Positions 4,377 to 46,663 of a stretch of DNA of 47,694 bases are shown here, piece after piece (position 1 is the first letter of the stretch; every line of letters begins with the position of its first letter). Origin of the DNA: a virus; IMG/VR virus record IMGVR_UViG_3300030618_000030, one strand, 5' to 3'. Under the pieces are notes generated by a model. It did no database searches. It had not been told where the DNA came from and saw nothing but the letters and a program-made list of their open reading frames with translations. A program made the position numbers and the translations under genes.

Positions 4377-4401
4377 CAGACCGTTATTAACGGTTCAAAC
4401 T
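4373..4401 (+). promoter_or_regulatory. promoter P4 with a perfect 15-bp palindromic operator in the spacer (class II)
   Basis: TTGACA(4373-4378, contains the TerL TGA), spacer gACCGTTATTAACGGTt (palindrome 4380-4394), weak -10 CAAACT(4396-4401). Confidence 0.5.
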
Positions 4402-4432
4402 TTGGCCGTACTGTCAACTTGGAGATAGAACG

Positions 4433-4606
4433 ATGAACATGATAGTTGTTGCAATACTCGTAGTTGGTACGACGCTATCAGTACAAAAAGCGTTACAAGG
4501 AAAAGGTGCCGATTTGGGAACATGGATCGTTGGTTACATATGCGAAGGTGGTTTGATGCTTGCGCTAACGGTCGCAGTTAGTTGGGTGTTCAGGAGCATC
4601 CAATGA
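4433..4606 (+). CDS. small membrane protein (57 aa, two hydrophobic segments)
   Basis: Hand-translated MNMIVVAILVVGTTLSV...LMLALTVAVSWVF. GGAG RBS at 4421. ATGA overlap with the next gene. Confidence 0.5.
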   Translation: MNMIVVAILVVGTTLSVQKALQGKGADLGTWIVGYICEGGLMLALTVAVSWVFRSIQ

Positions 4607-4779
4607 CACATTGGCCCGTCTGGTTGGTGCTGGTTCTACCGGGCATAGATTACATATCGGCAATCATTATGCACAAGCGTCCACAACCGTTGTATTCAAT
4701 GCAACGTGCCACGATTCGCGCCGTGTTGTGGATAATCGTATTTATAAACTGTGGCATTTTTGACGGGGGTTTCAAATGA
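4603..4779 (+). CDS. small membrane protein (58 aa, two hydrophobic segments)
   Basis: In-frame ATG at 4603 with GGAG 6 nt upstream. ATGA overlaps on both sides. Confidence 0.55.
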   Translation: MTHWPVWLVLVLPGIDYISAIIMHKRPQPLYSMQRATIRAVLWIIVFINCGIFDGGFK

Positions 4780-5105
4780 CGCAGGCTGATATCGCTCGCA
4801 TGATAAAATTGTGCGGTGTGCCGCGTTCCCGCACGGTTGAAGTGCTTTACCCGAACCCATGCGTAACGATCTATACAGACGATTGTTATTGGTTGCTTGT
4901 GATCGCTGTTGCCCGCGAAATGTCACAACCTGGGCAACTAATACAAGTTGAAGCGTTGGGCCACGCTCGTGACGTCAAGCCCGGCGAGCATGTGTTTTAC
5001 AAAGTGTCAACAATTGGGCCACGGTTTGCGTATCAAAGTCTTGATGACAAACAGCGCCGCAACATGCGCAACCGTCAAACTACCATCGATATACATGTTG
5101 CGTAA
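4776..5105 (+). CDS. hypothetical protein (109 aa)
   Basis: ATG ORF, translationally coupled to the two membrane ORFs. Confidence 0.6.
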   Translation: MTQADIARMIKLCGVPRSRTVEVLYPNPCVTIYTDDCYWLLVIAVAREMSQPGQLIQVEALGHARDVKPGEHVFYKVSTIGPRFAYQSLDDKQRRNMRNRQTTIDIHVA

Positions 5106-5113
5106 TAGCTACA

Positions 5114-5149
5114 ACCGTCAATAGTAGTTGCTGACCCCTTATTGACGGT
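5114..5149. promoter_or_regulatory. inverted pair of operator half-sites (ACCGTCAATA ... TATTGACGGT)
   Basis: 5114-5123 and 5140-5149 are reverse complements. With flanking bases they form an 11-bp stem with a 16-nt loop. Confidence 0.6.
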
Positions 5150-5156
5150 TTAAAAT
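5128..5156 (+). promoter_or_regulatory. candidate promoter P5
   Basis: TTGCTG(5128-5133), 17-nt spacer ending in the inverted half-site TATTGACGGTT, TAAAAT(5151-5156). Confidence 0.45.
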
Positions 5157-5181
5157 ACCATAACTTTTGTCGGGGGATAAA

Positions 5182-5388
5182 GTGGAAAAATGGATGCCCG
5201 GTTTTATCATTGAGAATGACAACGTGGCACGTGAGCCGTTAGGACCGAACGAAAAACGAATTGCCGCTTGGATCGCTTTGAAGTTTCGCCTCATTTTGCA
5301 CCGTCGTTATGCGCCGCGGCCTGACACATGGCCGCGTGACGAAAACCCGAACTGTCGCTGTTTCGTAAGACCCATAATCCCGGATTAG
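5182..5388 (+). CDS. hypothetical protein (68 aa) ending in an N-C-R-C-x-V-R-P motif
   Basis: GTG at 5182 with GGGGGA 4 nt upstream (track start 5167 is TTG; an ATG at 5194 is also possible). Confidence 0.45.
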   Translation: MEKWMPGFIIENDNVAREPLGPNEKRIAAWIALKFRLILHRRYAPRPDTWPRDENPNCRCFVRPIIPD

Positions 5389-5396
5389 TTGGACCC

Positions 5397-5430
5397 AACG
5401 CCCCAAGCTGTAAAATGGGGCGTTTCTTAT
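5397..5430 (+). terminator. hairpin/attenuator just upstream of the portal gene
   Basis: aacgcccca-(10 nt)-tggggcgtt followed by TTCTTATT. Confidence 0.45.
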
Positions 5431-5443
5431 TATGGGGTCCATC

Positions 5444-7066
5444 ATGCTCACATGGCTACGCAAACGGCTTGGACAAGAGCCGACCGAAAGTATCGAAAAC
5501 GAAAAAGTATTAAAAGGTTCGATGTTCTCGACGCATCGGACGGATTCATTGAGCCGCGGCAAACTGTCAAAAATGACGGTTCAATTGCATGAGGTATGGA
5601 CCAACTACACCCGCGCTTGGGCGCCCCGTCCGCAGTTGCCCGATGGCACGATGGACGATAGCGGCGACGGTTGGAACAGCATCAAGTCGGCCTATACGTT
5701 CGGTCAACCCAATATGTCGGACGCACTATTTCAGTGGTTCGGTACGCAATCATTTATTGGACACCAAGCCTGTGCGATTTTGTCGCAACATTGGATGATT
5801 GACAAAATATGCACAACCCCCGCACGCGATGCAATCCGACAAGGATACGAAATCGTCAATGAAGTGGGCGAAGAAAAACTCACAGAAGACGTGCAAGCGG
5901 CGTACGCCAAGTACGACAAGCTATTTAAAATCGATGCACATTTGCTCGAATTCGTACGCATGGGCCGAATCTTTGGCATCCGTGTTGCAATCCCGCGCAT
6001 CGAATCGCCCGACAAAGACTATTACGAAAAGCCGTTCAACCCGGACGGCGTACGCCGCGGCTCGTTTAAAGGTTGGACCCAAGTTGACCCGTATTGGATG
6101 GCGCCGATTTTGTCGGCCGAAGCATCGGCACAACCTGACGCGCCCGACTTTTACGAACCTACGTGGTGGTTGATCAATGGTAAAAAATATCATCGCTCAC
6201 ATCTGTGCATTTTCCGCACCGCGCAACCGCCTGACTTGCTGAAGCCGTCGTACCTATACAGCGGCGTGCCGATTCCACAGAAGATTATGGAACGCGTGTA
6301 TGCCGCGGAACGCACGGGCAACGAAGCGCCGTTGTTGGCACTGACGAAGCGCCTCTACACGTTGAAGCTCGACAGCATCGAAGACGCAATGGCGAATAAG
6401 CAAGACTTCGATGATTCAATGGCGTTCACCATTGATACACGCGATAACTACGGCGTGCGCATCATGGGCAAAGACGACGAAATGAGTCAGTTCGACACGT
6501 CGCTTGCCGATCTCGCGAACGTGATCGATACGCAATATGCGTTGGCGTGCGCGGCCGGCGACACGCCAGTAAATAAGATCATGGGTACTGCTGCGGCTGG
6601 CCTGGGTGGTAGTGCTGGCGACTATGACGAATCGAGTTATCACGAAACGCTTGAGTCTATCCAGACGCACGAATTGACGCCGTTTCTCGAACGTAATCAT
6701 TTGCTAGTGAAAATGTCGTACATAGTTCCTGAATTCGGTGCGGTCGACGGGGGCGCTAATACGACAGTATCGTGGAACCCGTTAGACTCGCCCACGGCGA
6801 AGGAATATAGCGAAATCAATTTGAACAATGCAAACGCTGATTTGGCGCTTGTCCAAACTGGCGCGGTCGATGACGTTGCCGTGAACGCTCGGTTGCGCAA
6901 TGACAAAAATAGCGGCTACTCGACGCTCAAGCCGTTGATTGTGTCAAACGAGCCGACCGACGAAGTGACACCTAACAACGCAGCGCCGCAGGGTGCGGGT
7001 CAAGAATCGCCGGAAAATAAGGCGTCGGCTAATTCGGCCGGTGTGAGTGCTCGCAGTGGCGCATAA
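5444..7066 (+). CDS. portal protein
   Basis: About 540 aa, lying between TerL and the Mu-F-like gene. The ATG at 5444 has GGGG 6 nt upstream; ATG 5432 is an alternative. Confidence 0.8.
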   Translation: MLTWLRKRLGQEPTESIENEKVLKGSMFSTHRTDSLSRGKLSKMTVQLHEVWTNYTRAWAPRPQLPDGTMDDSGDGWNSIKSAYTFGQPNMSDALFQWFGTQSFIGHQACAILSQHWMIDKICTTPARDAIRQGYEIVNEVGEEKLTEDVQAAYAKYDKLFKIDAHLLEFVRMGRIFGIRVAIPRIESPDKDYYEKPFNPDGVRRGSFKGWTQVDPYWMAPILSAEASAQPDAPDFYEPTWWLINGKKYHRSHLCIFRTAQPPDLLKPSYLYSGVPIPQKIMERVYAAERTGNEAPLLALTKRLYTLKLDSIEDAMANKQDFDDSMAFTIDTRDNYGVRIMGKDDEMSQFDTSLADLANVIDTQYALACAAGDTPVNKIMGTAAAGLGGSAGDYDESSYHETLESIQTHELTPFLERNHLLVKMSYIVPEFGAVDGGANTTVSWNPLDSPTAKEYSEINLNNANADLALVQTGAVDDVAVNARLRNDKNSGYSTLKPLIVSNEPTDEVTPNNAAPQGAGQESPENKASANSAGVSARSGA

Positions 7067-28024: not shown

Positions 28025-28053
28025 ACTATAGAACACTATTGACGGTTTTGCAA
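28025..28053 (-). promoter_or_regulatory. sigma70-like promoter P6 (class I spacer motif), minus strand
   Basis: Reverse complement reads TTGCAA, 17-nt spacer AACCGTCAATAGTGttc, TATAGT. Confidence 0.7.
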
Positions 28054-34079: not shown

Positions 34080-34108
34080 AGGATATAACGTTAATAACGG
34101 TTTTGCAA
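34080..34108 (-). promoter_or_regulatory. promoter P7 (class II, near-palindromic operator in the spacer), minus strand
   Basis: Reverse complement reads TTGCAA, spacer AACCGTTATTAACGTTA, TATCCT. The operator at 34088-34101 has one mismatch. Confidence 0.6.
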
Positions 34109-34116
34109 GGGGCAAC

Positions 34117-35871
34117 ATGAGTAATTTGCGCGGCTTTCAGTTCAAACTAAAACAAGATGCGCTCAACGAGTTCGCGGCTGGCGCCCGCGCCGTAATGGTT
34201 CAACTGGCGACCGGGGGCGGCAAAACCGTTGTAATGGGTAGCTTCGCAAAGGATCATGCCGCAACACCCTGGAACCCGGCGTTGCCCGGTGGTTGCGCAA
34301 TGGCGCACCGTTCCGAACTGGTCGGACAGTTATCGATGCAGCTTGCTCGTGAAGATGTACCGCACGATATCATCGCGCAACCTGGGACCATACGAAGCAT
34401 TGTTGAAGCGCATATTGATGAGCTTGGACGCACATATTACAACGCCCGCACACCGTGGCGTGTGGCAAGCGTCGACACCATCAACAAACGTAAAGATTTG
34501 GGTCGGTGGGCAAGTACGGTTGGATTGCTATTTGTTGACGAAGCGCACCATGTGCTAGAGAACAACAAATGGGGCAAAGCCGTATCGATATTTCCCCAAC
34601 AATCCCGCGTGTTATTGCCGACAGCTACGCCGATACGTGCGGACGGGCACGGTTTGGGACGCGACGAAGGGGGCATAGCCGATGCGTTGGTTGAAGGGCC
34701 GCCGATGCGTTGGTTGATCGATAACGGCTATTTGACGGATTACAAAGTCTATGCAATTCCCCCGTCCGACCTAGATTTAAATGGCGTGGCAGTCGGCGCA
34801 AACGGTGAGTTCAACCCGGCACAACTACGTGAAGCGGTTCATAAATCCAATAAGATCGTTGGCGATGTTGTCGCAACCTATTGCAAATACGCACGCGGCA
34901 AACTGGGCGTAACGTTCGCGGTCGACATTGCACACGCTCAAGAAATTACCGATGCGTTCAACGCCGCAGGCGTGCCGGCTGTACTGATTACATCGGATAG
35001 CACCCCCGATGAGCGCCGCATCGCACTACGAAAATTTAAGAATCGAGAATTGCTGCAACTGGTCAATGTTGATCTTTTTGGCGAGGGTTTCGACTTACCT
35101 GCAATCGAGTGCGTATCGTTCGCTCGGCCTACAGCGTCTTTTGCGCTCTACAGTCAACAATGGGGGCGTGCGCTGCGTTTGATGATATCGGCAATACTCG
35201 CCGGGACGTGGGATATGTACCCGCCCCAACGACGGTTAGAGTTGATCGCATCGAGCGAGAAGCCGTTCGCGTATATCTTTGACCATGCGGCTAACTTCTA
35301 TCGACATGAGGGACCGCCTGATAAACCGCGGGTATGGTCGCTCGATGGTCGCAAGCGCAATCGTGGCTCTGACGACGCAATACCGATGCGTGTGTGCCTT
35401 AATGTCACGTGTGCGCAACCGTACGAGCGTATTTATGCAGCGTGCCCCCATTGTGGAACCGCGGCGCCCGCACCATCTGACCGAAGCGGGGCATTGACCG
35501 TTGACGGCGACATAACCGAAATCGATCCGCTTTTGCTCGCACAGTATCGCGGCGAAATTGCGCGCATTGATGACGCGCCAATTGTGCCGTACGGCGTGCC
35601 GCGATTGCCGGTAGTAGCTAACCATATGCGACGACAGGCCGCACAGTTCCGATTGCGTGAAGCGATTACCGTCTGGTGTCTGTCGCGCCACGAAAACGCC
35701 AATGTAGCCATGCGTCGATTTTGGTTCACGTTCAAGATTGACGTAATGCAGGCGAAGACGCTAAACGCCAAAGACGCCGACGCGTTACGCGCTAAAATTT
35801 GCGCCGATCTTGAATTGCGTGGTATCGTTCCACCTGAAACCATTATTAACACTGCGGAGCAAGCGGCATGA
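34117..35871 (+). CDS. superfamily-2 DNA helicase (DEAH box) with a C-terminal zinc ribbon
   Basis: Motif I ATGGGKT, motif II VDEAHH, motif III TATP, motif VI QQWGRALR, and CLNVTC...CPHC. Confidence 0.85.
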   Translation: MSNLRGFQFKLKQDALNEFAAGARAVMVQLATGGGKTVVMGSFAKDHAATPWNPALPGGCAMAHRSELVGQLSMQLAREDVPHDIIAQPGTIRSIVEAHIDELGRTYYNARTPWRVASVDTINKRKDLGRWASTVGLLFVDEAHHVLENNKWGKAVSIFPQQSRVLLPTATPIRADGHGLGRDEGGIADALVEGPPMRWLIDNGYLTDYKVYAIPPSDLDLNGVAVGANGEFNPAQLREAVHKSNKIVGDVVATYCKYARGKLGVTFAVDIAHAQEITDAFNAAGVPAVLITSDSTPDERRIALRKFKNRELLQLVNVDLFGEGFDLPAIECVSFARPTASFALYSQQWGRALRLMISAILAGTWDMYPPQRRLELIASSEKPFAYIFDHAANFYRHEGPPDKPRVWSLDGRKRNRGSDDAIPMRVCLNVTCAQPYERIYAACPHCGTAAPAPSDRSGALTVDGDITEIDPLLLAQYRGEIARIDDAPIVPYGVPRLPVVANHMRRQAAQFRLREAITVWCLSRHENANVAMRRFWFTFKIDVMQAKTLNAKDADALRAKICADLELRGIVPPETIINTAEQAA

Positions 35872-36313: not shown

Positions 36314-36798
36314 GCATTATCCGAACCTGGGCCGCGGAATACGGCGTATCACTCGATGCGGTCGTTGCGCTTGAGCGACGTATGGGGTTAAGCGGCATTC
36401 ACCCTCACGAAATATCTCTTGATGCGCCACGTGGTAGCGAAGCCCGGCAACAGAGTTTGGTACGCCTGGAAGCGGCCGATAAGGGTGTGCGTCTGTATCG
36501 TAACAACGTCGGCGCCTACCGTGACGATAGCGGGCAAATGGTGCGGTATGGGTTGGCGAATGACAGCGCTGCGCTTAATAAGGTGCTCAAATCGTCGGAC
36601 TTGGTAGGCTGGCGCAAGCGGCACATTACGGCAAATATGGTCGGGAGTGTCATTGCTCAGGTCGTGCTACGCGAAATGAAACCCGAAGATTGGACGTTTA
36701 GCGGTAGCGCACACGAGCGGGCGCAATCGGCGTTTCTCGAACTGTGTATTGCAGACGGTGGAGATGCAAGGTTTGCCACTGGTCCCGGAACGTTGTAA
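36310..36798 (+). CDS. VRR-NUC domain nuclease
   Basis: ...LYRNNVGAY...VRYGL...SSDLVGW...LREMKP...ERAQSAFL...GGDARF matches the VRR-NUC PD-(D/E)XK layout. Confidence 0.7.
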   Translation: MSIIRTWAAEYGVSLDAVVALERRMGLSGIHPHEISLDAPRGSEARQQSLVRLEAADKGVRLYRNNVGAYRDDSGQMVRYGLANDSAALNKVLKSSDLVGWRKRHITANMVGSVIAQVVLREMKPEDWTFSGSAHERAQSAFLELCIADGGDARFATGPGTL

Positions 36799-36831
36799 TA
36801 TCCCCATAACTAAACCATTACTAACGATACT

Positions 36832-37134
36832 ATGACTCGAATTCGAATGATCGCGGACGACCGCAAGAAACAACTATTGGAAGCGGGCTACAAGATCGCT
36901 CGAACCAAGGGTATCCGTAAGGTGACGCGGGCTAGTGTGGCGCGTGAGTGCAAGGTGTCGCATGGCCTGCTCAATCACTACTTTGACGGGCGCGAAGGGT
37001 TGCGGTCGGAAGTAATGGCGTTTGCAATCGAGCAGAAAGACGCTAAAACCCTCGCCGCGTGCGCAGTGCATTACGAGCTTGACGACTTTGGTATGGGTCG
37101 GGAATTGAAGCGTGAAGTGTCGGCGCTTATGTAA
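36832..37134 (+). CDS. HTH-only TetR-family-like DNA-binding protein (100 aa)
   Basis: ...RKKQLLEAGYKIARTKGIRKVTRASVARECKVSHGLLNHYFDGREGLRSEV... is a typical TetR_N helix-turn-helix. No ligand-binding domain follows. I saw no clear RBS. Confidence 0.6.
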   Translation: MTRIRMIADDRKKQLLEAGYKIARTKGIRKVTRASVARECKVSHGLLNHYFDGREGLRSEVMAFAIEQKDAKTLAACAVHYELDDFGMGRELKREVSALM

Positions 37135-37153: not shown

Positions 37154-37185
37154 AAGCCACACTTCACGGTGTGGCTTTTTTTTTG
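37154..37185 (+). terminator. intrinsic terminator
   Basis: aagccacac-ttcacg-gtgtggctt followed by T9. Confidence 0.8.
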
Positions 37186-37194: not shown

Positions 37195-37223
37195 TTGCAA
37201 ATCCGTTATTAACGGTTTATGCT
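37195..37223 (+). promoter_or_regulatory. promoter P8 (class II operator in the spacer)
   Basis: TTGCAA(37195-37200), spacer aTCCGTTATTAACGGTt, TATGCT(37218-37223). Confidence 0.65.
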
Positions 37224-37608: not shown

Positions 37609-37610
37609 TC

Positions 37611-38618: not shown

Positions 38619-38788
38619 AATATTTCGTCAAGGCCAAATGGCCGCTTGAATCATCCGGCGTAGGTCAAGAATTGATACAACGCGTACCAACCAAGCGTCG
38701 CTTTGATGACCGTGACGCGGCGTTTGAATGGATGGCACAAGCGCTTACCGATGGCGCAACGTCCGTCACGATCCGACCGAACGCCTAA
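38615..38788 (+). CDS. hypothetical protein (57 aa, MKYFVKAKWPLESSGVGQ...)
   Basis: Hand-translated. ATGA overlap with the upstream stop. Confidence 0.45.
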   Translation: MKYFVKAKWPLESSGVGQELIQRVPTKRRFDDRDAAFEWMAQALTDGATSVTIRPNA

Positions 38789-38791
38789 CCC

Positions 38792-39001
38792 ATGTGCCCC
38801 ATCTTTACTACAGGTGACGGGCGGCAACGTCAGTATGCTAGGCGCGAAGATGGGCTGTTGTTCTATCGTATCAAGCGCGTAGAGGCGCCGGGCTGGTCGG
38901 CATGGCATATTGCGACTGATCAACACCCGACCGGCTTGTGGCTTAACCGCAGCGCTGGCAATGCGCGCTTACCGAGTGAGGTACTAAATGCAAAAGATTA
39001 A
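38792..39001 (+). CDS. hypothetical protein (69 aa)
   Basis: ATG ORF in the packed array. Confidence 0.45.
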   Translation: MCPIFTTGDGRQRQYARREDGLLFYRIKRVEAPGWSAWHIATDQHPTGLWLNRSAGNARLPSEVLNAKD

Positions 39002-39377
39002 CAACAGTAAAGGTTTGCCGATTGAACTGCGGCGCGCATATTTGGCCGCGTGTGCCGTTGGGTTGGAATGTGAATTGCATGGGGGTCTTACATTGGGCGT
39101 TTCCGGCGTCAATTTCAGCCCCGAAGATGATACGGTCGACGCTATGGCGTTGGTATCAGCCGCGCAACGGCATGGGTTTGTGTCGCATATTGGTTTTACA
39201 CGCACCCGTCTTAGATTGGTTGTACGTATCGTTGTGGCGTACGCTGATACTCGCGTTCAAATTGGCGCAAGTCGCTGGTATGTACGCCCGTTGGAGAATG
39301 ACCCGACCCGTGCAATGCGGTTAGCAATTGTTGACGCGTTTGCAGATTATTATGCGCTCGAATTTCCCGAAGCGTGA
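38988..39377 (+). CDS. hypothetical protein (129 aa)
   Basis: ATG ORF with a GAGG RBS. Confidence 0.6.
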   Translation: MQKINNSKGLPIELRRAYLAACAVGLECELHGGLTLGVSGVNFSPEDDTVDAMALVSAAQRHGFVSHIGFTRTRLRLVVRIVVAYADTRVQIGASRWYVRPLENDPTRAMRLAIVDAFADYYALEFPEA

Positions 39378-39546
39378 CTTACTGCCGTCGCAAGCATCGG
39401 ACCATGTTACCCGTGCGCTTGACGATGCCTATGAACGCGGCGCACGGCTCGGTTGGCGTATGGGGCTAGCGCGTGCCATCGCTGAATTTAAAGATCAACC
39501 GCGCTTAGTCGCTCACTTGGAACGCCTGAAAAATGAGAAATTATAA
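39352..39546 (+). CDS. hypothetical protein (64 aa)
   Basis: First in-frame ATG of ORF 39328-39546. 26-nt overlap with the upstream gene and no clear RBS. Confidence 0.3.
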   Translation: MRSNFPKRDLLPSQASDHVTRALDDAYERGARLGWRMGLARAIAEFKDQPRLVAHLERLKNEKL

Positions 39547-39952
39547 TTGCCACACTTGCCAAGAGCCGATGAAAGTGTCGGTACAGTTTCACTGGTACAT
39601 CGTCGGAAACGGCATGCAGCATCAGAAGTGTCAGAACTGCGGCGCGGTACATGATGTGACACCCGACAAAATCACACTGAGTACGCCCGGCGTGCCGTTT
39701 GCCAAACTGTCGGCGTTCTACGACTACCCGGAATACAAACCGTACCGCGTGGGGCCGTACCGCGTGATGTTCCAAACCGGCAATATTGCCAAGTCCTATT
39801 ATGAGTGGGATGGTGAAACGTTTCGCAATGGGCCGATGATCCTATCCCCCGGCACTATCATTGCGTGGCAAGGTTTGGCCGGCGATAACGAGCACACCAA
39901 ACGCATGCCGTACGAACACGACGCGCCGTTGGAGTTGCCGCCATGCGACTGA
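39533..39952 (+). CDS. zinc-ribbon-containing protein (139 aa)
   Basis: C-H-T-C ... C-Q-N-C pairs near the N-terminus. Confidence 0.55.
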   Translation: MRNYNCHTCQEPMKVSVQFHWYIVGNGMQHQKCQNCGAVHDVTPDKITLSTPGVPFAKLSAFYDYPEYKPYRVGPYRVMFQTGNIAKSYYEWDGETFRNGPMILSPGTIIAWQGLAGDNEHTKRMPYEHDAPLELPPCD

Positions 39953-40149
39953 TTTATAAATGTGGTCTGTGTGGCGGCATGAAAGCATTTCAGGCGCCCT
40001 TAAGTTTGGCCCAACGTGCCAGTGTGGAAGCAATACTTGCCGCTATCAATGACCACAACGGACCATTCGATATTCATTTGGCAATTCGTCATCCATGCAA
40101 GCCGGGCACTGATGGTATTGCGCATCTGGTCGGGGTTGAAGCAGAATGA
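39943..40149 (+). CDS. hypothetical protein (68 aa)
   Basis: ATG ORF overlapping the upstream gene by 10 nt. Confidence 0.5.
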   Translation: MRLIYKCGLCGGMKAFQAPLSLAQRASVEAILAAINDHNGPFDIHLAIRHPCKPGTDGIAHLVGVEAE

Positions 40150-40244
40150 TACTTCTAGTTTTGGCTATTATTGCTGCTTTGATGACACACCCAATATGGT
40201 GTGTCGGGTTCATTGTCTTGCACATGATATTCGACACACCATGA
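40146..40244 (+). CDS. possible 32-aa hydrophobic micropeptide (MILLVLAIIAALMTHPIWCVGFIVLHMIFDTP)
   Basis: Hand-translated. ATGA overlap with the upstream stop, and a terminator follows. Confidence 0.3.
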   Translation: MILLVLAIIAALMTHPIWCVGFIVLHMIFDTP

Positions 40245-40251
40245 CCCCTCC

Positions 40252-40280
40252 CGGCCCGCACCATGCGGGCCGTTTTGTTT
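40252..40280 (+). terminator. intrinsic terminator
   Basis: cggcccgca-cca-tgcgggccg followed by TTTTGTTT. Confidence 0.75.
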
Positions 40281-40291
40281 GTGCTATGCTT

Positions 40292-40318
40292 TCACACACT
40301 GTCACACACTGTCACACA
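40292..40318 (+). repeat. 10-bp tandem direct repeat TCACACACTG x2.7, directly upstream of the RHH-like ORF
   Basis: 40292-40301 equals 40302-40311, and 40312-40318 is a partial copy. Related GACACAC motifs occur at 40184, 40199 (inverted) and 40233. Confidence 0.85.
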
Positions 40319-40325
40319 TCCCAAA

Positions 40326-40499
40326 ATGATCACTCCAAACTTTATCAGCGTGCGTTTGCTCGATGATGACAAAGACAACTTTGCGTTGATCTTGGCGCAT
40401 GAGGAAAAGCGCACAGGTATCACCCTGAGCGTGTCTGATCTATACCGCCTTGCGATCAAAGCATTGGCGGAAAAGCACAATATTAAAGGCGTTCGCTAG
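40326..40499 (+). CDS. ribbon-helix-helix (CopG/Arc-like) DNA-binding protein, tentative (57 aa)
   Basis: The pattern is strand (FISVRL), helix (KDNFALILAHEEKRTG), helix (SVSDLYRLAIKALAEKH). In-frame ATG at 40326 with no obvious RBS. The track start at 40263 lies inside the terminator. Confidence 0.4.
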   Translation: MITPNFISVRLLDDDKDNFALILAHEEKRTGITLSVSDLYRLAIKALAEKHNIKGVR

Positions 40500-40508
40500 G
40501 ACTATCCC

Positions 40509-43133
40509 ATGCAAGATATCAATACGCTGCGTGCTGCGCTGGCGGGGCCGCTTGCCCCATTGACCCAGTATCGGCAGTTTATGCTGTGGCGGCTTGAGCC
40601 GGATGTATCGGGCGGCAAGCCGCGTAAGATTCCCTATCGCATTGACGGCAGTATGGGTTCGAGCACGGACCCGACCAGTTGGGTAGACGCCGCAACCGCG
40701 CTTGATGTGGCGCAGCGTTCCAATATGGGCGTGGCGTTCGTATTGTCAGACGCGGACCCGTTCATCTTTATTGACGTTGACGGTTGTGTGGTCGACGGCA
40801 AGTGGGATACCGATGCGCTTGATACGTTCGGTCGCTTTCCAGGTACAGCATTCGAAGTGTCACAGTCTCACACCGGGTTTCATTTGTTCGTCGCGGGTAA
40901 TACACCGCCGGGATACACCGGCCGCAAGCGCGGTAAGTTCGAGTGTTACCGTACGTCGCGCTTTGTCGCATTGACCGGCATTGGCGCAACGGGACAACTT
41001 TTGAATTTCGGCGCAGGATTGGACGCCTGGATAGCTGACAAATTCCCCCTTGCTGTTAGTGACGGCGAGCTAGGCCCGCTTAAGTGGCACACCGCACCGA
41101 TACCCGAATGGGCCGGGCCGCACGATGACGCCGAACTGTTGCGCCAGTTCTTAGCCGAACCTGTGCGCGCCAATGCTGCGATGGCGTTCGCTAATCTTGT
41201 GCCGGGTCAAGTGCCTGACATGCCGGTGAGTAACGCAGACCTGTTCAATGCAACAGCCTCAGTGCTTGCAAGTGCATACCCATCCGATAAAGGTGATGCA
41301 TTCGATAAGAGCAACGCGGCGTTTGCGCTCGCGTGTCGGCTGGCGTATTGGACCGGTAAAGACTGCCCACGCATCGAGCGACTGATGGGGCTTGCAGCGT
41401 TTCGTCGTACCAAGGCCGATCAATATCACAGCAACGGCATTACATACATGCATTGGGACATTATGCGTGCGTGTGCGTTCACAACGAAGGTGCGCTACCA
41501 ACGCGCCGAAGCTGCCAACGCGGAAGTGGTTGCCAATGCGGCGCAAGCATACGACGCTTACTATGATCGAATAGCCGCGGCACCGGATATACATGCAGTG
41601 CGCGTAATTACCGGTGAGGTCGCAGTTGATTTACGTATTGATCCGACGTTGCGCGAGTTGCTCGCCGGGCACGTACAGGCCAGCTTGCTCACCAGTGGCA
41701 GCAAGCTCAAGATAGACGAGTGCCGCAAGTTGGTCGCGCAGCGCAGCGCACACCCCGCACCCGACCGACAAGCGATGCAGCGTCAAACGAATATCGCGTT
41801 AAATCTTGATGAGGACTTACCAACGCTGGCACCCGTGCTCACTACGGCGCAAATGCTAGATGAATATGTGTTCATTGCGGACGGCTCGAACGTTGCTAGT
41901 ATTTACGATGGCAAGTCTGCGTTCACCTTGCCCGACTGGCGCAACATGATGGCCGCAAGTCGTACCGTAATGCCCGACGGCGCCACTGTCGAACATACGG
42001 AAGCATGGCGCACGCATGCGGGTCGCAAGTCTGTAGCAACTCGAACATTCCATGCCGGTGAGAGCGTCATCACCCGTGATCCTAACGGACGCGTGGCGCT
42101 CAATCTGTGGCGCCCGGTCGCTCGTGGCACTGCGGCGACTGTAGATATCGGGCCATTCTTAGAACACGTTAATTATCTGTTCGGGTCTGACGCCGGGGCG
42201 TTCCTAGACTGGCTTGCTCACATCGAGCAATTTCCCGGCGTGTTGCCGCACTACGGGTTCCTTCACATAGCGGACCACTTTGGATGTGGGCGCAACTGGC
42301 TTGAATCCGTCATTGCTCGCTTGTGGCGTGGTTATGTCGCGCCCAGTGTGGATATGGATCAGCTAATTGGTGGCGGGTTCAATGGTGCGCTTGCTGGCCG
42401 CATTATTGCCGTGGTTGATGAGATACGGGCGGGCGCTCGCGAAGACGCGTACATGTTAGAGGGAAAGATACGCAATATGCTCACCGAAGAAACACGGTCG
42501 ATCAATCCGAAATATGGCCGGGCCTACATGGAACATAACGCGTGTCGCTGGCTGTTGTTCTCGAACCATAAGAACGCTATCCCGATGAATGCGAATGACC
42601 GCAGATGGTACGTGATCCATTTGGGGCTTAAGCCGCGTGAGGCGCATGTCTATAGCTATCTGTACGGGCTGCTCGAACAACCGGCGTTCATTGATTCGGT
42701 CGGTATATGGTTGCGCCAACGTGATCTAAGCCAGTACAACCCCGGCGCCCGGCCGCCTGAGACAACCGCGAAGCTACGGGCCATTGACGCAAGCAAGTCG
42801 GACTATCAACGGCTGGCGGCTAACGTCGTTAAATACTGGCCCGCGGACCTGATCACTACAAACGATCTCACAAGCATCATGTTTGAAGGTGACATGAGCG
42901 CGATGGGTAAGAAAATTAACGCAGCAATGAAACATGCGTTACAGGATTGCGGCATGCACTACGTGGACAAGCCATTATTCGATGCGAGCGGCGCTAGACA
43001 CCGAACATGGATCGTTCGGAACGTTGATTACTGGCTTGCCGATCTTAAATTACTGAGGACGGCGCCCGAATTTAACAAGTTGGTGGCGTTTAACAAAGGC
43101 ACCGGCAACCAAACTTTGACGGCCCTACTGTGA
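40509..43133 (+). CDS. bifunctional primase-polymerase (prim-pol) with PriCT-like region and SF3-type helicase/NTPase domain
   Basis: Prim-pol motifs FIFIDVDGC and SQSHTGFHLF. PriCT-like AFDKSNAAFALACRLAYWTGKD. C-terminal Walker B IIAVVDE and LFSNH. The Walker A position is atypical (HFGCGRNW). Confidence 0.8.
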   Translation: MQDINTLRAALAGPLAPLTQYRQFMLWRLEPDVSGGKPRKIPYRIDGSMGSSTDPTSWVDAATALDVAQRSNMGVAFVLSDADPFIFIDVDGCVVDGKWDTDALDTFGRFPGTAFEVSQSHTGFHLFVAGNTPPGYTGRKRGKFECYRTSRFVALTGIGATGQLLNFGAGLDAWIADKFPLAVSDGELGPLKWHTAPIPEWAGPHDDAELLRQFLAEPVRANAAMAFANLVPGQVPDMPVSNADLFNATASVLASAYPSDKGDAFDKSNAAFALACRLAYWTGKDCPRIERLMGLAAFRRTKADQYHSNGITYMHWDIMRACAFTTKVRYQRAEAANAEVVANAAQAYDAYYDRIAAAPDIHAVRVITGEVAVDLRIDPTLRELLAGHVQASLLTSGSKLKIDECRKLVAQRSAHPAPDRQAMQRQTNIALNLDEDLPTLAPVLTTAQMLDEYVFIADGSNVASIYDGKSAFTLPDWRNMMAASRTVMPDGATVEHTEAWRTHAGRKSVATRTFHAGESVITRDPNGRVALNLWRPVARGTAATVDIGPFLEHVNYLFGSDAGAFLDWLAHIEQFPGVLPHYGFLHIADHFGCGRNWLESVIARLWRGYVAPSVDMDQLIGGGFNGALAGRIIAVVDEIRAGAREDAYMLEGKIRNMLTEETRSINPKYGRAYMEHNACRWLLFSNHKNAIPMNANDRRWYVIHLGLKPREAHVYSYLYGLLEQPAFIDSVGIWLRQRDLSQYNPGARPPETTAKLRAIDASKSDYQRLAANVVKYWPADLITTNDLTSIMFEGDMSAMGKKINAAMKHALQDCGMHYVDKPLFDASGARHRTWIVRNVDYWLADLKLLRTAPEFNKLVAFNKGTGNQTLTALL

Positions 43134-43141
43134 ATTATGGA

Positions 43142-43270
43142 GAACAGAGAACAGTCGGGAACAGTCTACAGAAAAAGAGCTGTTCAAAAGTAATAAGTAT
43201 TAACCCTAATAGGTATATAGGTGGTGGCTATGGAGTTTTTGCCTAGACTGTTCCCGACTGTTCTCTGTTC
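43142..43270. repeat. Perfect 27-bp inverted repeat (43142-43168 / 43244-43270) built of GAACAG iterons, flanking an AT-rich 75-bp core. Candidate ori or pac region.
   Basis: The left arm gaacagagaacagtcgggaacagtcta is the reverse complement of the right arm. GAACAG occurs at 43142, 43149 and 43159; CTGTTC occurs at 43180, 43248, 43258 and 43265. Confidence 0.9.
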
Positions 43271-43290
43271 CCGGCAATTAAAGGCGTGAT

Positions 43291-44100
43291 ATGAGTACGG
43301 ATAATTTAACGCCAAAGCAACAAGCGTTTATTTTGGCTCGTGTAGAACTTGGGAACGATACGGAAGCATATAAGCGTGCGTATGACTGCGCACGTATGAA
43401 AGAAACAACGATATCTAGGAATGCGCATGCGTTAGTGCGGTTGCCAAAAGTGGCAGCTAAATTGCAGCAAATCGAAGAACGATCCGAACGCGCCGCCATC
43501 CTAGACCGTGCCGGCGTGATCAATTTAATTACCGAAATTGCAACGGCCGACGCGACCGCATTTAGCGAATTGCAGATACGGAACTGCCGGCACTGTTGGG
43601 GCGTGGGACATCGGTTCCAATGGGCCAATGAAACGGAGTTCGCCTTTCGGTGCGCCGAAGTGATGGACCGCAACGCAAAGGCGGTCCGTAAGTGGCAGGC
43701 GGGCAAATGCAAGCCCCGCGACGAACCCGTTCCGGAAGAGTTGCCGACTGATGAGGGTGGCTATGGGTTCGTCGTCACACACGAGCCGAACGCCGAATGC
43801 CCCTCATGTCTAGGTGAAGGGTTAGAGGTCGTACGGTTCAAAGACACACGCAAACTCAAAGGCGCGTCGAAACGTTTGTTTGCCGGTATCAAGACCGGCC
43901 CGCGTGGCATCGAGATAAAGACGCGTAGTCAGGAACATGCGCTAGGCTTGCTTGCCAAGATTCACGGTATTGACAATGATCCGCCACCGGCCGCACCAGG
44001 GGGCACCACGTTTAACAACTACGGGCAGGCTGTTGTTATGATTCCAACTGATCCGCTCGAAGCAGCGCGGGCCTATCAAGAATTAATGAAGGGGGGTTAG
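43291..44100 (+). CDS. terS: terminase small subunit (Terminase_2-like N-terminus) with CxxC...CxxC insert
   Basis: The N-terminus LTPKQQAFILARVELGNDTEAYKRAY...AHALVRLPKVAAKLQQIEERSE is typical of TerS. It is followed by CRHCWG...CPSCLG. Confidence 0.75.
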   Translation: MSTDNLTPKQQAFILARVELGNDTEAYKRAYDCARMKETTISRNAHALVRLPKVAAKLQQIEERSERAAILDRAGVINLITEIATADATAFSELQIRNCRHCWGVGHRFQWANETEFAFRCAEVMDRNAKAVRKWQAGKCKPRDEPVPEELPTDEGGYGFVVTHEPNAECPSCLGEGLEVVRFKDTRKLKGASKRLFAGIKTGPRGIEIKTRSQEHALGLLAKIHGIDNDPPPAAPGGTTFNNYGQAVVMIPTDPLEAARAYQELMKGG

Positions 44101-44102
44101 AC

Positions 44103-44393
44103 ATGCAGAAGTGGGAACGAGGCGCACGCGCAGCTATTGTCATTAGTGAACATTACGAAAATCATAACCGAGTCGTGACGTTGACCGACACCTATACGTA
44201 CAGTAGTGGCAAAGTCGGGTGGTTAGTTGAAGACGGCAAGTTGTTCAAAGGTTACGACCATAGCAAGTTGCCCGCACGGGCGTTTGTTTGGAAAATGAGA
44301 CTTGGCATTGAACAGTGGAAATTGCGCTTGCTTGACGACAACGAGCCGGTCGTAATACGCGATGAAATTGAATATGTCGAACAGACCGTCTGA
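44103..44393 (+). CDS. hypothetical protein (96 aa)
   Basis: ATG ORF with a GGGGGG RBS, 2 nt after the TerS stop. Confidence 0.6.
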   Translation: MQKWERGARAAIVISEHYENHNRVVTLTDTYTYSSGKVGWLVEDGKLFKGYDHSKLPARAFVWKMRLGIEQWKLRLLDDNEPVVIRDEIEYVEQTV

Positions 44394-44565
44394 GCGCAGG
44401 CACTGGGTGCGGTTTTCTGTAGTGTTAGACGGCGACCGTGTGTATCGATTGGGTGAACACGATTCGCCACGCACTATTAACGCCGTATCAAACACTACGC
44501 TTGTGCTTGATCGTATGATCCGTAAAGGCAAAGACGCTTGGACGGGTAGAATAGACCCGCCATGA
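44362..44565 (+). CDS. hypothetical protein (67 aa; alternative start 44374)
   Basis: ATG ORF overlapping the upstream gene by 20-32 nt, ending just before the terminator. Confidence 0.4.
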   Translation: MKLNMSNRPSERRHWVRFSVVLDGDRVYRLGEHDSPRTINAVSNTTLVLDRMIRKGKDAWTGRIDPP

Positions 44566-44578: not shown

Positions 44579-44612
44579 TGCCCCGGTGCAATTACTGACC
44601 GGGGCATTTTTT
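44579..44612. terminator. intrinsic terminator between convergent genes
   Basis: tgccccggt-(10 nt)-accggggca followed by TTTTTT. Confidence 0.8.
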
Positions 44613-45195
44613 ATGCAACAACCGTTTCGCCTTGTTCGGCTGTGACGTCTTCCGGTTGTGCCGCGGGCGGTCGCTCGAACAACTCGTGAGCCATTGTCAT
44701 CAACTGTGTTGCAAGCTCGATCAGTTCCTCACGCGTCGCACTTGGCGGAATGACCAAGTGCAAATGCTGCGTACCGATCTTGCGGCCGGGCGTCACTTTG
44801 CGAGGAGGTCGAATCTTGTCGCATGCTAGCAATACCTCATTGACCGAATTGAGCTTTAGCGCCTTGATATGCGGCCGGAACGCGTCGACCAACTCACGTT
44901 TGGTCAATCCCTGCGCCCATTCATTTATGTCATCCGTACCAACGAAGTCAAACAGCGCACTGGCGGCACTAATGCGCCGATTTATGGACTTCCAATCCAT
45001 ATCGCCCGGCTTGGCGCACTTACTGCCGGCCGCACCGTAAATCGTCAATAGCGTTTCGCGGGCCAAACGCTTCATGTTGTCGCATTCGAGAATGACGGCA
45101 AAACCAACGGCCAGTTCGATTTCAAGCGCGGTTGATCGTGACAACGCTGCTTCAACGATTGCGTTGCTGTATGCCTTAAGGTGCGTCTTATTCAT
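44611..45195 (-). CDS. hypothetical protein (194 aa), the sole leftward gene of this region and a candidate regulator by position only
   Basis: The in-frame ATG at 45195 (MNKTHLKAY...) has GGAG 8 nt upstream and lies downstream of promoter P9. The track start at 45288 lies upstream of that promoter. Confidence 0.65.
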   Translation of the reverse strand: MNKTHLKAYSNAIVEAALSRSTALEIELAVGFAVILECDNMKRLARETLLTIYGAAGSKCAKPGDMDWKSINRRISAASALFDFVGTDDINEWAQGLTKRELVDAFRPHIKALKLNSVNEVLLACDKIRPPRKVTPGRKIGTQHLHLVIPPSATREELIELATQLMTMAHELFERPPAAQPEDVTAEQGETVVA

Positions 45196-45213: not shown

Positions 45214-45243
45214 TTGACAGACCGGACAAGTTGCCGGTAAATT
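45214..45243 (+). promoter_or_regulatory. candidate rightward promoter P10
   Basis: TTGACA(45214-45219), 18-nt spacer, TAAATT(45238-45243). The predicted start lies just before the palindrome at 45253-45267. Confidence 0.45.
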
Positions 45244-45244
45244 C

Positions 45245-45273
45245 AATGTAGAACCGTTATTAACGGTTTGCAA
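45245..45273 (-). promoter_or_regulatory. promoter P9 (class II, perfect palindromic operator in the spacer), minus strand
   Basis: Reverse complement reads TTGCAA, spacer ACCGTTAATAACGGTTC, TACATT. The palindrome at 45253-45267 is perfect. Confidence 0.6.
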
Positions 45274-45311
45274 GTTATTTATTAACATCTTATGTAAGGA
45301 AACGTACAGAC

Positions 45312-45608
45312 ATGGGCAAACCTACCAATCTCACGACGGCACACGCGCAACAGGCCGAACTAGCAGCAATTTTCGCTCCTAAGAGCGCCGCAGCAGGCAA
45401 CAGCGTAACGGCCGGGCAGTTGATCGAAGCCAATGCACAAATCGAAACATTGACCGCAGAGAACGAAGCGTTTCGAGCGGCTAACGACGAAGGTGCGTCA
45501 ATCGTGACAGGCTTGAATCAACAGATTGAAACGTTGACGGCCGAACTTGCGGCCGAAAAAGAAGCACACGCGAAAACTCAGGCGGCATTGACCGCTGCAA
45601 CCGCATAA
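45312..45608 (+). CDS. coiled-coil protein (98 aa)
   Basis: ATG ORF. Repeated ...QIETLTAEN / QIETLTAEL... heptad-like segments. Confidence 0.6.
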   Translation: MGKPTNLTTAHAQQAELAAIFAPKSAAAGNSVTAGQLIEANAQIETLTAENEAFRAANDEGASIVTGLNQQIETLTAELAAEKEAHAKTQAALTAATA

Positions 45609-45625
45609 CAACAAGGCGACCCGTC

Positions 45626-46093
45626 ATGGAAAATCTAAAGTTAGTGCTTGAGCACAGCCCGTATAAACCGCGTACGGCCAAAGTGTTGACCCCGGCTGTG
45701 TACGAAGCGGCCCAAGTCGAATTAGACAACTTGGAAAAAGACGCAACCGCGTACCGGCGACTGATCGATACCGGCGAAATAACGCGGGGCGATTGGTTTC
45801 CTAAGTACGTATTGGACCTTGAAGCCGACGCCCAACGATTCCAGGGGTTGCGGTTGATCATGCTCGAACATAACGAAGCGTTACAAGAAAAGTTCTTTGA
45901 TGTTTTGGAACAAGTTGTGCCGCTTGACCCCGACGCACTGCCGACGCCGGAACAACTGAATGTAGGAATTGATGTTGCGTTGTTCGAATGTGCAAAACTT
46001 CGTCGGCAATGTAAAGGTGTCAATTGCACGTCGGACGGCAAGACGCAGCATTCAACCGAGTGCGATCAAGCATGCCGCGATGCAGACCGTTAA
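45626..46093 (+). CDS. hypothetical protein (155 aa)
   Basis: ATG ORF. Confidence 0.65.
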   Translation: MENLKLVLEHSPYKPRTAKVLTPAVYEAAQVELDNLEKDATAYRRLIDTGEITRGDWFPKYVLDLEADAQRFQGLRLIMLEHNEALQEKFFDVLEQVVPLDPDALPTPEQLNVGIDVALFECAKLRRQCKGVNCTSDGKTQHSTECDQACRDADR

Positions 46094-46232
46094 GCCGCGG
46101 GCGCGACAGCTTGGGTCGCAATGGTTCGTTTTTGGAAACGGTATAACCGGTTATGACGAAGCGTCACTAGACGCAGCATATGAAAATTGGTGTCAGCTCG
46201 TCATGAAACAGTTGTGCAACCCGAAGCCGTGA
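46080..46232 (+). CDS. hypothetical protein (50 aa)
   Basis: In-frame ATG at 46080 of ORF 45969-46232, with a 14-nt overlap. Confidence 0.35.
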   Translation: MQTVKPRARQLGSQWFVFGNGITGYDEASLDAAYENWCQLVMKQLCNPKP

Positions 46233-46260
46233 TATAGTGGCGACTCTTTACCGTTAATAA
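46212..46260 (+). promoter_or_regulatory. candidate extended -10 promoter P12 plus a downstream operator half-site
   Basis: TGaTATAGT at 46230-46238, with a weak -35 TTGTGC. The half-site ACCGTTAATAA lies at 46250-46260. Confidence 0.45.
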
Positions 46261-46278
46261 CACTTTGGAGAAATCCCC

Positions 46279-46575
46279 ATGATGAAAAGTATTCGACTGA
46301 CGATGATCGCGATGGGCGTAATGGGTTTGGCAATGTCCGACGTTTCCGGTGCGACCGATCCGGCGCCCGCAACCACTGTCGTAACGCCGGCAACTCCCGT
46401 TGCGGTCGACCTGACCGACGTAAAAACGGAGCACGTCAGCTTGCTTGAACGTTTCGTCGCATTGCTCAAGCGCGACGAACAATGGATTGTCGACAACATC
46501 GAAGCCGGCGTTACGGCGCTTGAAGGGATGTTCGAACCGAAGCCCGAAGTACCCGCGCAAGGCACCAGTAGCTAA
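46279..46575 (+). CDS. secreted protein (98 aa) with a signal peptide
   Basis: MMKSIRLTMIAMGVMGLAMSDVSGA-TDP.... GGAG RBS, with a terminator downstream. Confidence 0.65.
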   Translation: MMKSIRLTMIAMGVMGLAMSDVSGATDPAPATTVVTPATPVAVDLTDVKTEHVSLLERFVALLKRDEQWIVDNIEAGVTALEGMFEPKPEVPAQGTSS

Positions 46576-46599
46576 ACACCAGCGTCGACGATTGAAGGA

Positions 46600-46632
46600 A
46601 ACGGCCCGTATGTTGCATACGGGCCGTTTTTA
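46600..46632 (+). terminator. intrinsic terminator
   Basis: acggcccgtatg-ttg-catacgggccgt followed by TTTTT. Confidence 0.8.
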
Positions 46633-46633
46633 T

Positions 46634-46663
46634 TTGTACGGAACGTTATTAACGGTTTATACT
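46634..46663 (+). promoter_or_regulatory. promoter P11 (class II operator in the spacer)
   Basis: TTGTAC(46634-46639), 18-nt spacer ggAACGTTATTAACGGTt, TATACT(46658-46663). Confidence 0.6.

Follow-up and report, generated by a model that had tools for sequence, protein, structure and literature searches.

A proposed palindromic operator in the promoter regions of a BcepB1A-like phage genome, and a short TetR-like protein as its putative repressor

The viral sequence IMGVR_UViG_3300030618_000030 of the IMG/VR collection (47,694 nt; hereafter the window, by which we mean the whole stretch of DNA analysed) is the metagenome-derived genome of a BcepB1A-like myophage. Within or shortly after most of its early and middle promoters stand copies of a 15-bp palindrome, ACCGTTAnTAACGGT, which we propose, with a probability of about 0.6 and judging from sequence comparison, to be the operator of a phage-encoded repressor, the product of the gene at 36832-37134. 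This 100-aa protein, here termed mini-TetR, has the DNA-binding domain of the TetR family and lacks the C-terminal core of that family. A first-pass annotation of the window had read the palindrome as the operator of a phage-wide repressor regulon, and that reading is strengthened by the recurrence of the same layout at syntenic promoters in at least ten related contigs. The site has the properties of a regulon element, being short, repeated, over-represented and confined to promoter regions, and across the relatives the site and its presumed cognate protein are jointly conserved and diverge together.

Results

The palindrome and its sites

The two perfect palindromes that had been reported (ACCGTTATTAACGGT at 4380-4394 and 45253-45267) were recovered as exact matches to the pattern ACCGTTANTAACGGT, which was matched in none of 100 dinucleotide-preserving shuffles. 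Two of the three one-mismatch copies (37202-37216 and 46642-46656) lie where they had been placed, while the third, which had been given a start at 34088, in fact spans 34087-34101; two further copies with two mismatches (36814-36828 and 46250-46264) had not been listed as operators. When up to two mismatches are allowed, ACCGTTAnTAACGGT occurs at 7 sites in the window against 0.12 expected, and at three mismatches the count is 14 against 2.1 expected. A weight matrix built solely from sites in related phages gives the 7 window sites scores of 17.7-26.9 bits and detects 14 window matches of at least 10 bits (1.2 expected), with an extra weak match (14.3 bits) at 35839, just before the gene starting at 35868. 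According to the open reading frame (ORF) map, the 7 best sites are intergenic or no more than about 6 bp from the end of a gene.

The central base may be A, T, C or G without preference and carries no information. Each arm position carries 1.0-1.9 bits, the most informative being positions 3-7 and 9-13 (core CGTTA/TAACG). Among 39 imperfect copies, 54 arm positions are altered on one side only and 2 are compensatory; the best conserved bases are those adjacent to the centre, where a hairpin would have its loop. Both observations are as expected of half-sites recognised by a protein and the reverse of what a stem-loop under selection would give, and we therefore regard the motif as a protein site and not as a hairpin.

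Promoter context of the sites

The first-pass annotation had placed the palindrome between the -35 and -10 hexamers of five promoters (P4, P7, P8, P9 and P11; Table 1), and direct reading of the sequence agrees with this, with no coordinate off by more than one base. A generic sigma-70 scan called none of these class II promoters, each of whose hexamers matches the consensus at about four of six positions, and the overall number of calls was not above chance, so that the hexamers alone do not establish promoters. Their promoter status is supported by the conserved composite layout, by terminators just upstream and by comparison with relatives.

P4 heads a small cassette (4433-5105) between TerL and portal, P8 heads the operon 37258-44565 of small genes, primase/helicase and a TerS-like gene, and P11, directly after a terminator, heads 46693-47620 and, past the assembly junction, 40-300. 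The other two members of this group lie in bidirectional regions, in each of which a single operator is shared: for the leftward promoter it lies in the spacer, and for the rightward promoter at about +1 to +16. At 34087 the operator sits inside a 79-bp divergent region from which P7 serves the replication operon leftward and the helicase-to-TetR operon (ATG at 34117) runs rightward; at 45253 it fills the spacer of P9 and overlies the start of the strong rightward early promoter P_R. A third layout, in which a -10 is followed after about 10 nt by the operator and then by the ribosome-binding site (RBS), is found in the window at three places and also in relatives. The 36814 site lies between the -10 of P_tetR, a promoter inside the end of a 162-aa nuclease-like gene, and the start codon of the mini-TetR gene, and is proposed to be autoregulatory. 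The 46250 site lies between an extended -10 (TGaTATAGT, 46230-46238) and the RBS of gene 46279-46575, and the 35839 site is preceded by a -10-like TATCGT and followed by the RBS of gene 35868-36143. From each of the three placements, in the spacer, over the start of a transcript and between -10 and RBS, a bound protein would block RNA polymerase, and none would suit an activator.

A separate leader motif, (T)GTCAAC / ATCAACAA, was noticed about 20 nt past the -10 and shortly before the RBS at 4412, 37234 and 45213 (minus strand) of the window, and also in leaders of L007, L130-L136, L031 (related loci described below) and BcepB1A. Genome-wide, TGTCAAC is not over-represented in the window (7 occurrences, 6.9 expected).

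Conservation in related phages

Relatives were gathered by an exact 15-mer scan of IMG/VR, which returned mostly chance singletons with several window-related contigs among them, and by alignment-based and identity-based look-ups. The resulting loci bear L numbers; L031, L089, L139 and L219 are loci of a single distant contig, IMGVR_UViG_3300020036_004067. In at least ten related contigs the palindrome occupies a sigma-70-type spacer of 17 bp or the stretch from +1 to +20, and does so at syntenic places: the replication/helicase divergent region, after the TetR-like gene, the divergent region of a lone 194-aa gene, after TerL, and before small early genes (Table 1). The frame consists of a -35-like hexamer, 0-1 nt, the 15-mer, 1-2 nt and a -10-like hexamer, often with a terminator directly upstream, and was seen in L007, L067, L125, L129, L130, L131, L132, L136/L228, L227 and the distant contig. 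A strict promoter test, requiring a 17-bp spacer, a -35 with TTG or at most two mismatches and a -10 of the form nAnnnT, was applied to the window together with 13 related loci from 11 contigs of related phages; it was passed by 28 of the 55 distinct sites with up to two mismatches and by 1% of random positions.

A rightward -10 (TATAAT, TATAGT, TATGAT or TATCAT) abuts the equivalent of the 34087 operator in L125, L129, L130 and L136, and the back-to-back arrangement of P_R and P9 recurs in L007 (88), L227 (9921) and L228 (9918). P_tetR is kept as TTGCAA/TTGCCA-N17-TAATAT/TAACAT in L129, L130, L132 and L136, and a degenerate palindrome with 2-4 mismatches precedes the TetR-like gene in these four loci and in L131. 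At the same place L067 has the left half-site only (5 mismatches), beside a -10-like TATTAT, and BcepB1A has its own motif, at 37238, upstream of gp59. At the promoter after the TetR-like gene, L130, L132 and L136 hold only a right half-site.

In the distant contig, two nearly identical promoter-operator-leader modules (L031 2621 and 9521) drive small genes opposite the structural strand, one set of which includes a 277-aa lipoprotein-like ORF. Both modules resemble moron-type cassettes governed by the same operator.

The mini-TetR protein and other candidate binders

Residues 15-61 of mini-TetR match the Pfam family TetR_N (PF00440) with an E value of 3.9e-8 and 33.4 bits (cut-off 24), and a profile of its family finds TetR-family DNA-binding domains in the PDB (E 5e-9), in alignments confined to the first 65-90 residues (from about residue 3 to about residue 90). 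The AlphaFold2 (AF2) model, with a predicted local distance difference test score (pLDDT) of 84.6, has six helices, namely the three-helix DNA-binding domain and three short helices. The top matches listed by Foldseek for this model are all of the TetR family, and a LuxR-DNA complex superposes with a root mean square deviation of 1.2 A over 63 columns. By its DNA-binding domain the protein thus belongs to the TetR family, whose members have in addition a C-terminal core (alpha-5 to alpha-10; about 180-250 aa in total length) that a protein of 100 aa does not have; its PDB relatives are all 186-406 aa long. Because mini-TetR is without this core, no small-molecule induction is expected and any dimerisation must differ from that of full-length TetR proteins.

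The short TetR-like family comprises about 55 members of 89-124 aa, the longest contigs being 42-48.5 kb, and a protein identical to that of the window is present on metagenome contigs of which the largest are 47-48.6 kb. Wherever an operator-bearing relative includes this region, a homologue follows the helicase and nuclease-like genes. Even in the distant contig, where the TetR-like protein is 33% identical, the helicase-nuclease-TetR-primase module is kept. Phage vB_KsaM-C1 (L232, ON807605.1) has in this same module a 92-aa TetR-like gene (5995-6273), which is labelled 'Anti-defence mechanism protein' in its record.

Three products had been put forward as candidate binders, and of these mini-TetR is the best, the other two being less likely. 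Mini-TetR is the only helix-turn-helix (HTH) protein recognised among 46 non-structural ORFs. The lone 194-aa protein has 45 homologues, on contigs of which the longest are about 47-48.5 kb and the others shorter fragments, and gave no family match in Pfam, PHROGs, PADLOC or NCBIfam and no HTH or other DNA-binding signature. Its AF2 model (pLDDT 86) matched no PDB fold, and in BFVD it matched only proteins of BcepB1A (gp37) and BCSR52. We read it as regulated cargo. The third candidate, the 57-aa ORF 40326-40499, appears ribbon-helix-helix-like by eye (ISVRL...SVSDLYRLAIKALAEKH) and has no Pfam match; just upstream, after a strong terminator (40252-40272), stands a tandem repeat (CACACTGTCACAC x2, 40295-40317). 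This ORF may encode a second, local regulator with an operator of its own, and the CACACTGTCACAC repeat is a likelier target for it than the 15-mer.

Co-variation of recognition helix and operator

Four operator classes track four classes of recognition helix. The helix SDGLLN[RH]YF goes with ACCGTTAnTAACGGT in the window group; TAGLVGVYF with AGATAnTATCT in BcepB1A (gp59) and L229; TDGLV[SN]RYF with AATCrTwAnTwAyGATT in L220, L230 and L231 (group C); and VAMGSVNHHY with TGACGn4CGTCA in vB_KsaM-C1. The window's 15-mer is absent from BcepB1A, in which AGATAnTATCT occurs at 8 sites against 0.33 expected and at syntenic places: after TerL, in the gp37 divergent region, before and after gp59, in the helicase divergent region and after the polymerase gene. 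The distant L219 protein keeps ...GLMNRYF together with the window's operator. L067 is the one exception to the correspondence. In three of the lineages the operators are odd-length dyads (7+1+7, 5+1+5 and 9+1+9), and tetO has this geometry too, its central base pair being free.

Half-site promoters

A further set of promoters in the window, termed class I, carries a 13-mer, ACCGTCAATAGTG, with exact copies at 304, 669, 1940 and 28034 (minus strand) and a one-mismatch copy at 5114. At the exact sites it begins one base past the -35 and ends three bases before the -10, with the left half-site of the palindrome kept and the right one lost. The earlier description of class I as the palindrome with its right half degraded fits these observations: the 13-mer is specific to this genome, and the L007 equivalents of the class I promoters carry full palindromes, a perfect one lying upstream of TerL at 3069. 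That class I might be a second conserved operator was considered and rejected, as the 13-mer was not found in the relatives examined; this lack of conservation points to lineage-specific decay or duplication. By sequence the half-sites look like decayed or tuned operators, and a lower repressor affinity of the class I promoters would be reasonable.

Upstream of gene 5167 and the portal/structural block the window has inverted class-I-like half-sites (5114-5149), an inverted repeat that may be a late promoter or a terminator. A full palindrome stands upstream of the portal block in L007 (6039), L227 (2168) and L228 (2411), in the latter two with an unusual -35 (GTGTT).

Table 1. Operators, promoters and associated features of the window, with syntenic counterparts in related loci. 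Operators are listed with the strand of their promoter where one is named; [13] and [15] stand for the 13-mer and the 15-mer.
Feature	Position	Strand	Sequence	Score (bits)	Remarks	Counterparts
Class I core	304..316	+	TTGACA-a-[13]-aac-TATTCT			
Class I core	669..681	+	TTTACA-a-[13]-ccc-TAGAAT			
Class I core	1940..1952	+	TTGCAA-a-[13]-att-TATAGT		Heads 239-aa repeat protein and TerL	
Operator, perfect, in P4 spacer	4380..4394	+	TTGACA-g-[15]-t-CAAACT	26.9	-35 4373-4378; -10 4396-4401, weak	L007 5350; L227 4853; L228 4802; BcepB1A 23196 (own motif)
Inverted class-I-like half-sites	5114..5149		ACCGTCAATA-N16-TATTGACGGT			
Class I core	28034..28046	-	TTGCAA-a-[13]-ttc-TATAGT		Heads 78-aa gene 27995-27759	
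Operator, 1 mismatch, in P7 spacer	34087..34101	-	TTGCAA-a-[15]-a-TATCCT	22.5	-35 34103-34108; -10 reverse complement of 34080-34085	L125 7345; L129 7227; L130 7170; L131 7401; L132 7343; L136 7361; L219 1584
Weak operator-like site, 3 mismatches	35839..35853	+	ACCATTATTAACACT	14.3		L129 8974; L130 8943 (3' end of helicase gene)
P_tetR	36773..36801	+	TTGCCA-N17-TAATAT		9/12 matches	
Degenerate operator, 2 mismatches	36814..36828	+	ACCATTACTAACGAT	17.7		
Mini-TetR gene	36832..37134	+			100-aa TetR_N-only protein, proposed repressor	
Intrinsic terminator	37154..37177	+			10-bp stem, then T7; closes helicase-to-TetR operon	
Operator, 1 mismatch, in P8 spacer	37202..37216	+	TTGCAA-a-[15]-t-TATGCT	24	-35 37195-37200; -10 37218-37223	Full sites: L088/L131 10354; L129 10366; L067 767; L219 7113
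Lone 194-aa gene	44611..45195	-			Driven from P9; 48% identity to BcepB1A gp37	
P_R, rightward early promoter	45214..45243	+	TTGACA-N18-TAAATT		10/12 matches	
Operator, perfect, in P9 spacer	45253..45267	-	TTGCAA-[15]-tc-TACATT	26.9	-35 45268-45273; -10 reverse complement of 45245-45250	L125 18379; L136 19193; L227 9921; L228 9918; L007 88
Weak operator, 2 mismatches	46250..46264	+		18.4		L125 19491; L227 8558; L228 8646
Operator, 1 mismatch, in P11 spacer	46642..46656	+	TTGTAC-gg-[15]-t-TATACT	22.6	-35 46634-46639; -10 46658-46663	L125 19942; L007 1613; L227 8114

Genome organization and other elements

The nearest cultured relative is Burkholderia phage BcepB1A (NC_005886), which is described as virulent; its TerL is 54% identical to that of the window, and 36 genes are syntenic at about 28-60% amino acid identity. 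The known hosts of cultured members of the group include Burkholderia and, for vB_KsaM-C1, probably Kosakonia. In the window the structural and lysis genes form a long block read rightward, and the replication operon, read leftward, encodes a 443-aa protein, a DUF2800 exonuclease, an annealing protein and a family-B DNA polymerase. The genome also has rightward operons for helicase, nuclease and TetR and then for primase and TerS; an early region of small genes that spans the assembly junction up to TerL; and the lone leftward 194-aa gene. The simplest explanation for an exact 127-bp terminal direct repeat (1-127 = 47568-47694) is an overlap left by the assembler on a genome that is circular or terminally redundant, and because the first 127 bases recur at the end we take the genome to be circularly assembled and about 47.6 kb (about 47,567 bp) in length.

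As had been noted, there is no recognisable CI/Cro or integrase: neither the scan of 46 non-structural ORFs nor the precomputed Pfam calls of this locus contained an integrase, CI/Cro or partition (Par) gene. A search of 185,579 species genomes of bacteria and archaea matched only ordinary, distant TetR genes and yielded neither a close relative nor a prophage. Within these scans the marks of temperate-phage immunity (integrase or plasmid maintenance, a CI-type repressor with a cleavage or oligomerisation domain, prophage copies in bacterial genomes) are thus not seen for this phage. In addition, megablast of 6.8 kb of the window against 50,697 phage records gave no match, nor did single-protein scans of IMG/VR with the TetR-like and 194-aa proteins.

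Three further features were noted. Just upstream of TerL, ORF 1982-2701 encodes a 239-aa tripeptide-repeat protein, with about 40 tandem 9-bp units at 2038-2419 and a weak NCBIfam match to the His-Xaa-Ser repeat protein HxsA4. Between the primase/helicase and TerS-like genes, the segment 43134-43275 consists of GAACAG x3, an AT-rich core and inverted CTGTTC x3, an iteron-like element that is a candidate replication origin or pac site; the same repeat architecture occurs downstream of primase/helicase in L230 (17170-17395) and L231 (17290-17645), with units GTTACC x3 and TGTGACC x3, and no TerS-like gene was called in these two loci. Lastly, a different conserved sequence that resembles a promoter, TTATTTATGrTyTACTgGnnGCGCC, stands after a terminator and ahead of the primase gene region in L067 (4540-4580 and 4975-5015), L230 (~14570-14610) and L231 (~14690-14730), and is absent from the window.

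Discussion

Our working model is that two copies of the HTH domain of mini-TetR would bind the two 7-bp arms around the free central base pair. The operator would fill the 17-bp spacer at P4, P7, P8, P9 and P11 and would cover +1 to +20 at P_R, at the helicase promoter and at 46250, 36814 and 35839, and in either position bound mini-TetR would exclude or block the host sigma-70 RNA polymerase. Because both promoters proposed for the repressor gene, that of the helicase operon and P_tetR, carry an operator, the circuit is predicted to include negative feedback. As mini-TetR accumulates, it would turn down the replication, primase/TerS, early and cassette operons, while the half-site promoters (those of the small early genes, of TerL and probably of the structural block) would escape repression or be repressed last, the order of shut-off being set by graded site strength. 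What the sequences show is the sites, their non-random number, their fixed position within a promoter-like architecture, their conservation in related phages, the TetR DNA-binding fold, and the joint occurrence and variation of repressor and site. What we infer is the identity of the binder as mini-TetR, its action as a dimer, a repressive effect of binding and an ordering of the response in time.

Several observations weigh against this model. According to the AF2 model, mini-TetR is without the core that normally forms the TetR dimer. L067 has the window's operator together with a divergent helix, TGPLVIRYI, and the S/N difference within the group C helix is accompanied by no matching difference in operator. 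The proposed temporal order is at odds with L007, whose TerL promoter has a perfect operator, and with the palindromes upstream of the portal block in L007, L227 and L228; since these loci carry good sites there, a rule of weak sites at late genes is not general. The temporal logic may differ between lineages, and in L007-type genomes silencing of the whole genome may be possible.

The least improbable alternative, and still an unlikely one, is that the operator is repressive and is bound by some other phage protein, be it the 194-aa product, that of ORF 40326-40499 or an unrecognised small protein. The 194-aa gene lies under a perfect operator in a divergent region that resembles a switch, an arrangement kept in BcepB1A (gp37) and in many relatives, many small ORFs carry no annotation, and the L067 exception weakens the co-variation on which the case for mini-TetR draws. 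Against this, the 194-aa protein shows neither a DNA-binding signature nor a PDB fold match, its gene was not found in L067 or in the ~29 kb of the distant contig, both of which have perfect operators, and ORF 40326-40499 has its own tandem repeat immediately upstream. Quite unlikely, in our view, is that a host transcription factor binds the palindrome, as LexA does in GIL01, and that the phage TetR-like protein has another job. Such a factor could account for the exact 15-mer being shared by phages that have little in common in their structural modules (portal 23% identity), but even the distant phage among these still shares the helicase-nuclease-TetR-primase module, and a degenerate copy stands in front of the TetR-like gene across lineages, reduced in L067 to the left half-site. 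Moreover, sister lineages have switched palindromes at the same promoter positions together with the recognition helix of the TetR-like protein, and such lineage-specific switches argue against a host factor and are what would be expected of a phage-encoded pair.

Still less probable is that the palindrome is a positive element, either the target of a MerR-style spacer activator or part of a promoter for a phage-modified RNA polymerase. The weakness of several -10 hexamers (CAAACT, TATCCT, TACATT), the failure of generic scans to call the promoters and the lack of a good -35 at the portal-block palindrome of L227 and L228 would suit this explanation. However, the spacers are 16-18 bp and mostly 17 bp long, whereas MerR-type activation needs 19-20 bp; the -35 hexamers are near consensus; sites downstream of the -10, over +1 or the RBS, would make no sense for an activator; and the sole candidate factor is from a repressor family, with no MerR-family protein in the scanned ORFs. 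A motif unconnected with transcription is very improbable, be it a hairpin acting as a terminator or RNA processing site, a target of restriction/modification, or a repeat that serves replication or packaging. A simple scan does flag CCGTTATTAACGG and its T-run at 37203 as terminator-like, but the pattern of arm changes and the conservation beside the centre do not fit a hairpin, the predicted transcription start is downstream of most copies, the position of the motif is locked to the -35 and -10, and the iteron-like element at 43134-43275 is separate from the palindrome. We retain mini-TetR as the preferred binder.

If this is correct, the sites amount to a concrete transcription map of a phage group from soil and peat, on whose regulation we found no published data and of which one member, BcepB1A, is in culture. 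A minimal scaffold of ~100 aa that seemingly reads a 15-bp dyad without the usual core bears on DNA recognition by TetR domains, and the repressor/operator pairs (ACCGTTAnTAACGGT, AGATAnTATCT, AATCrTwAnTwAyGATT and TGACGn4CGTCA) could serve as compact orthogonal parts in synthetic biology. A virulent-type phage that uses the host sigma-70 polymerase may in this way order its expression through graded operator strength. It is tempting to speculate further. A broader proposal, which we rate as rather unlikely, is that mini-TetRs form a widespread family of master regulators in BcepB1A-like phages and phages sharing the module, with lineage-matched operators like those of heteroimmune groups, and that they dimerise on DNA without the core. 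It is also a possibility that, beyond lytic timing, mini-TetRs let integrase-less phages hold the whole genome in a repressed, non-integrated carrier state.

Among known systems, TetR/tetO of Tn10 resembles the one proposed here in its N-terminal three-helix DNA-binding domain (by Pfam, PDB profile and fold), in its odd-length dyad operator and in the placing of operators within overlapping divergent promoters. The repressor gene of tetR/tetA is autoregulated, as is proposed for mini-TetR. Unlike TetR, of ~200 aa, mini-TetR has ~100 aa and is without the inducer-binding and dimer core, and it would control at least 8 sites genome-wide where TetR controls one efflux gene. With lambda Cro and Mu Ner it shares the character of a small, effector-less HTH protein from an early operon that is predicted to occupy dyad operators overlapping early promoters and thereby to lower early transcription and its own; in contrast to them it has a TetR fold, no CI partner, integrase or bistable switch was seen in the window genome, and its sites are dispersed, whereas theirs are clustered at one or two operator regions. 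In having one repressor and many dispersed, promoter-near sites of graded quality, the arrangement resembles P1 C1, the phiC31 c repressor with its conserved inverted repeats and the gp71 stoperators of mycobacteriophage L5, although these are immunity repressors of temperate phages and of other folds, and the P1 and L5 sites are asymmetric. A further parallel is BcepB1A itself, which has homologues of the TetR-like gene (gp59, 'TetR-family transcriptional regulator') and of the 194-aa gene (gp37) and the same regulon layout, and differs in its operator, AGATAnTATCT, and its helix, TAGLVGVYF. In the searchable literature, a scope outside which the BcepB1A genome paper fell, we found no description of phage regulators consisting of the TetR DNA-binding domain only. 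Dispersed phage repressor/operator regulons (P1 C1, phiC31, L5, lambda Cro) and TetR repressors are already known; what is new is a DNA-binding-domain-only TetR protein that appears to be master regulator in a group of integrase-less phages of virulent type, together with a conserved regulon layout served by lineage-specific, matched operators.

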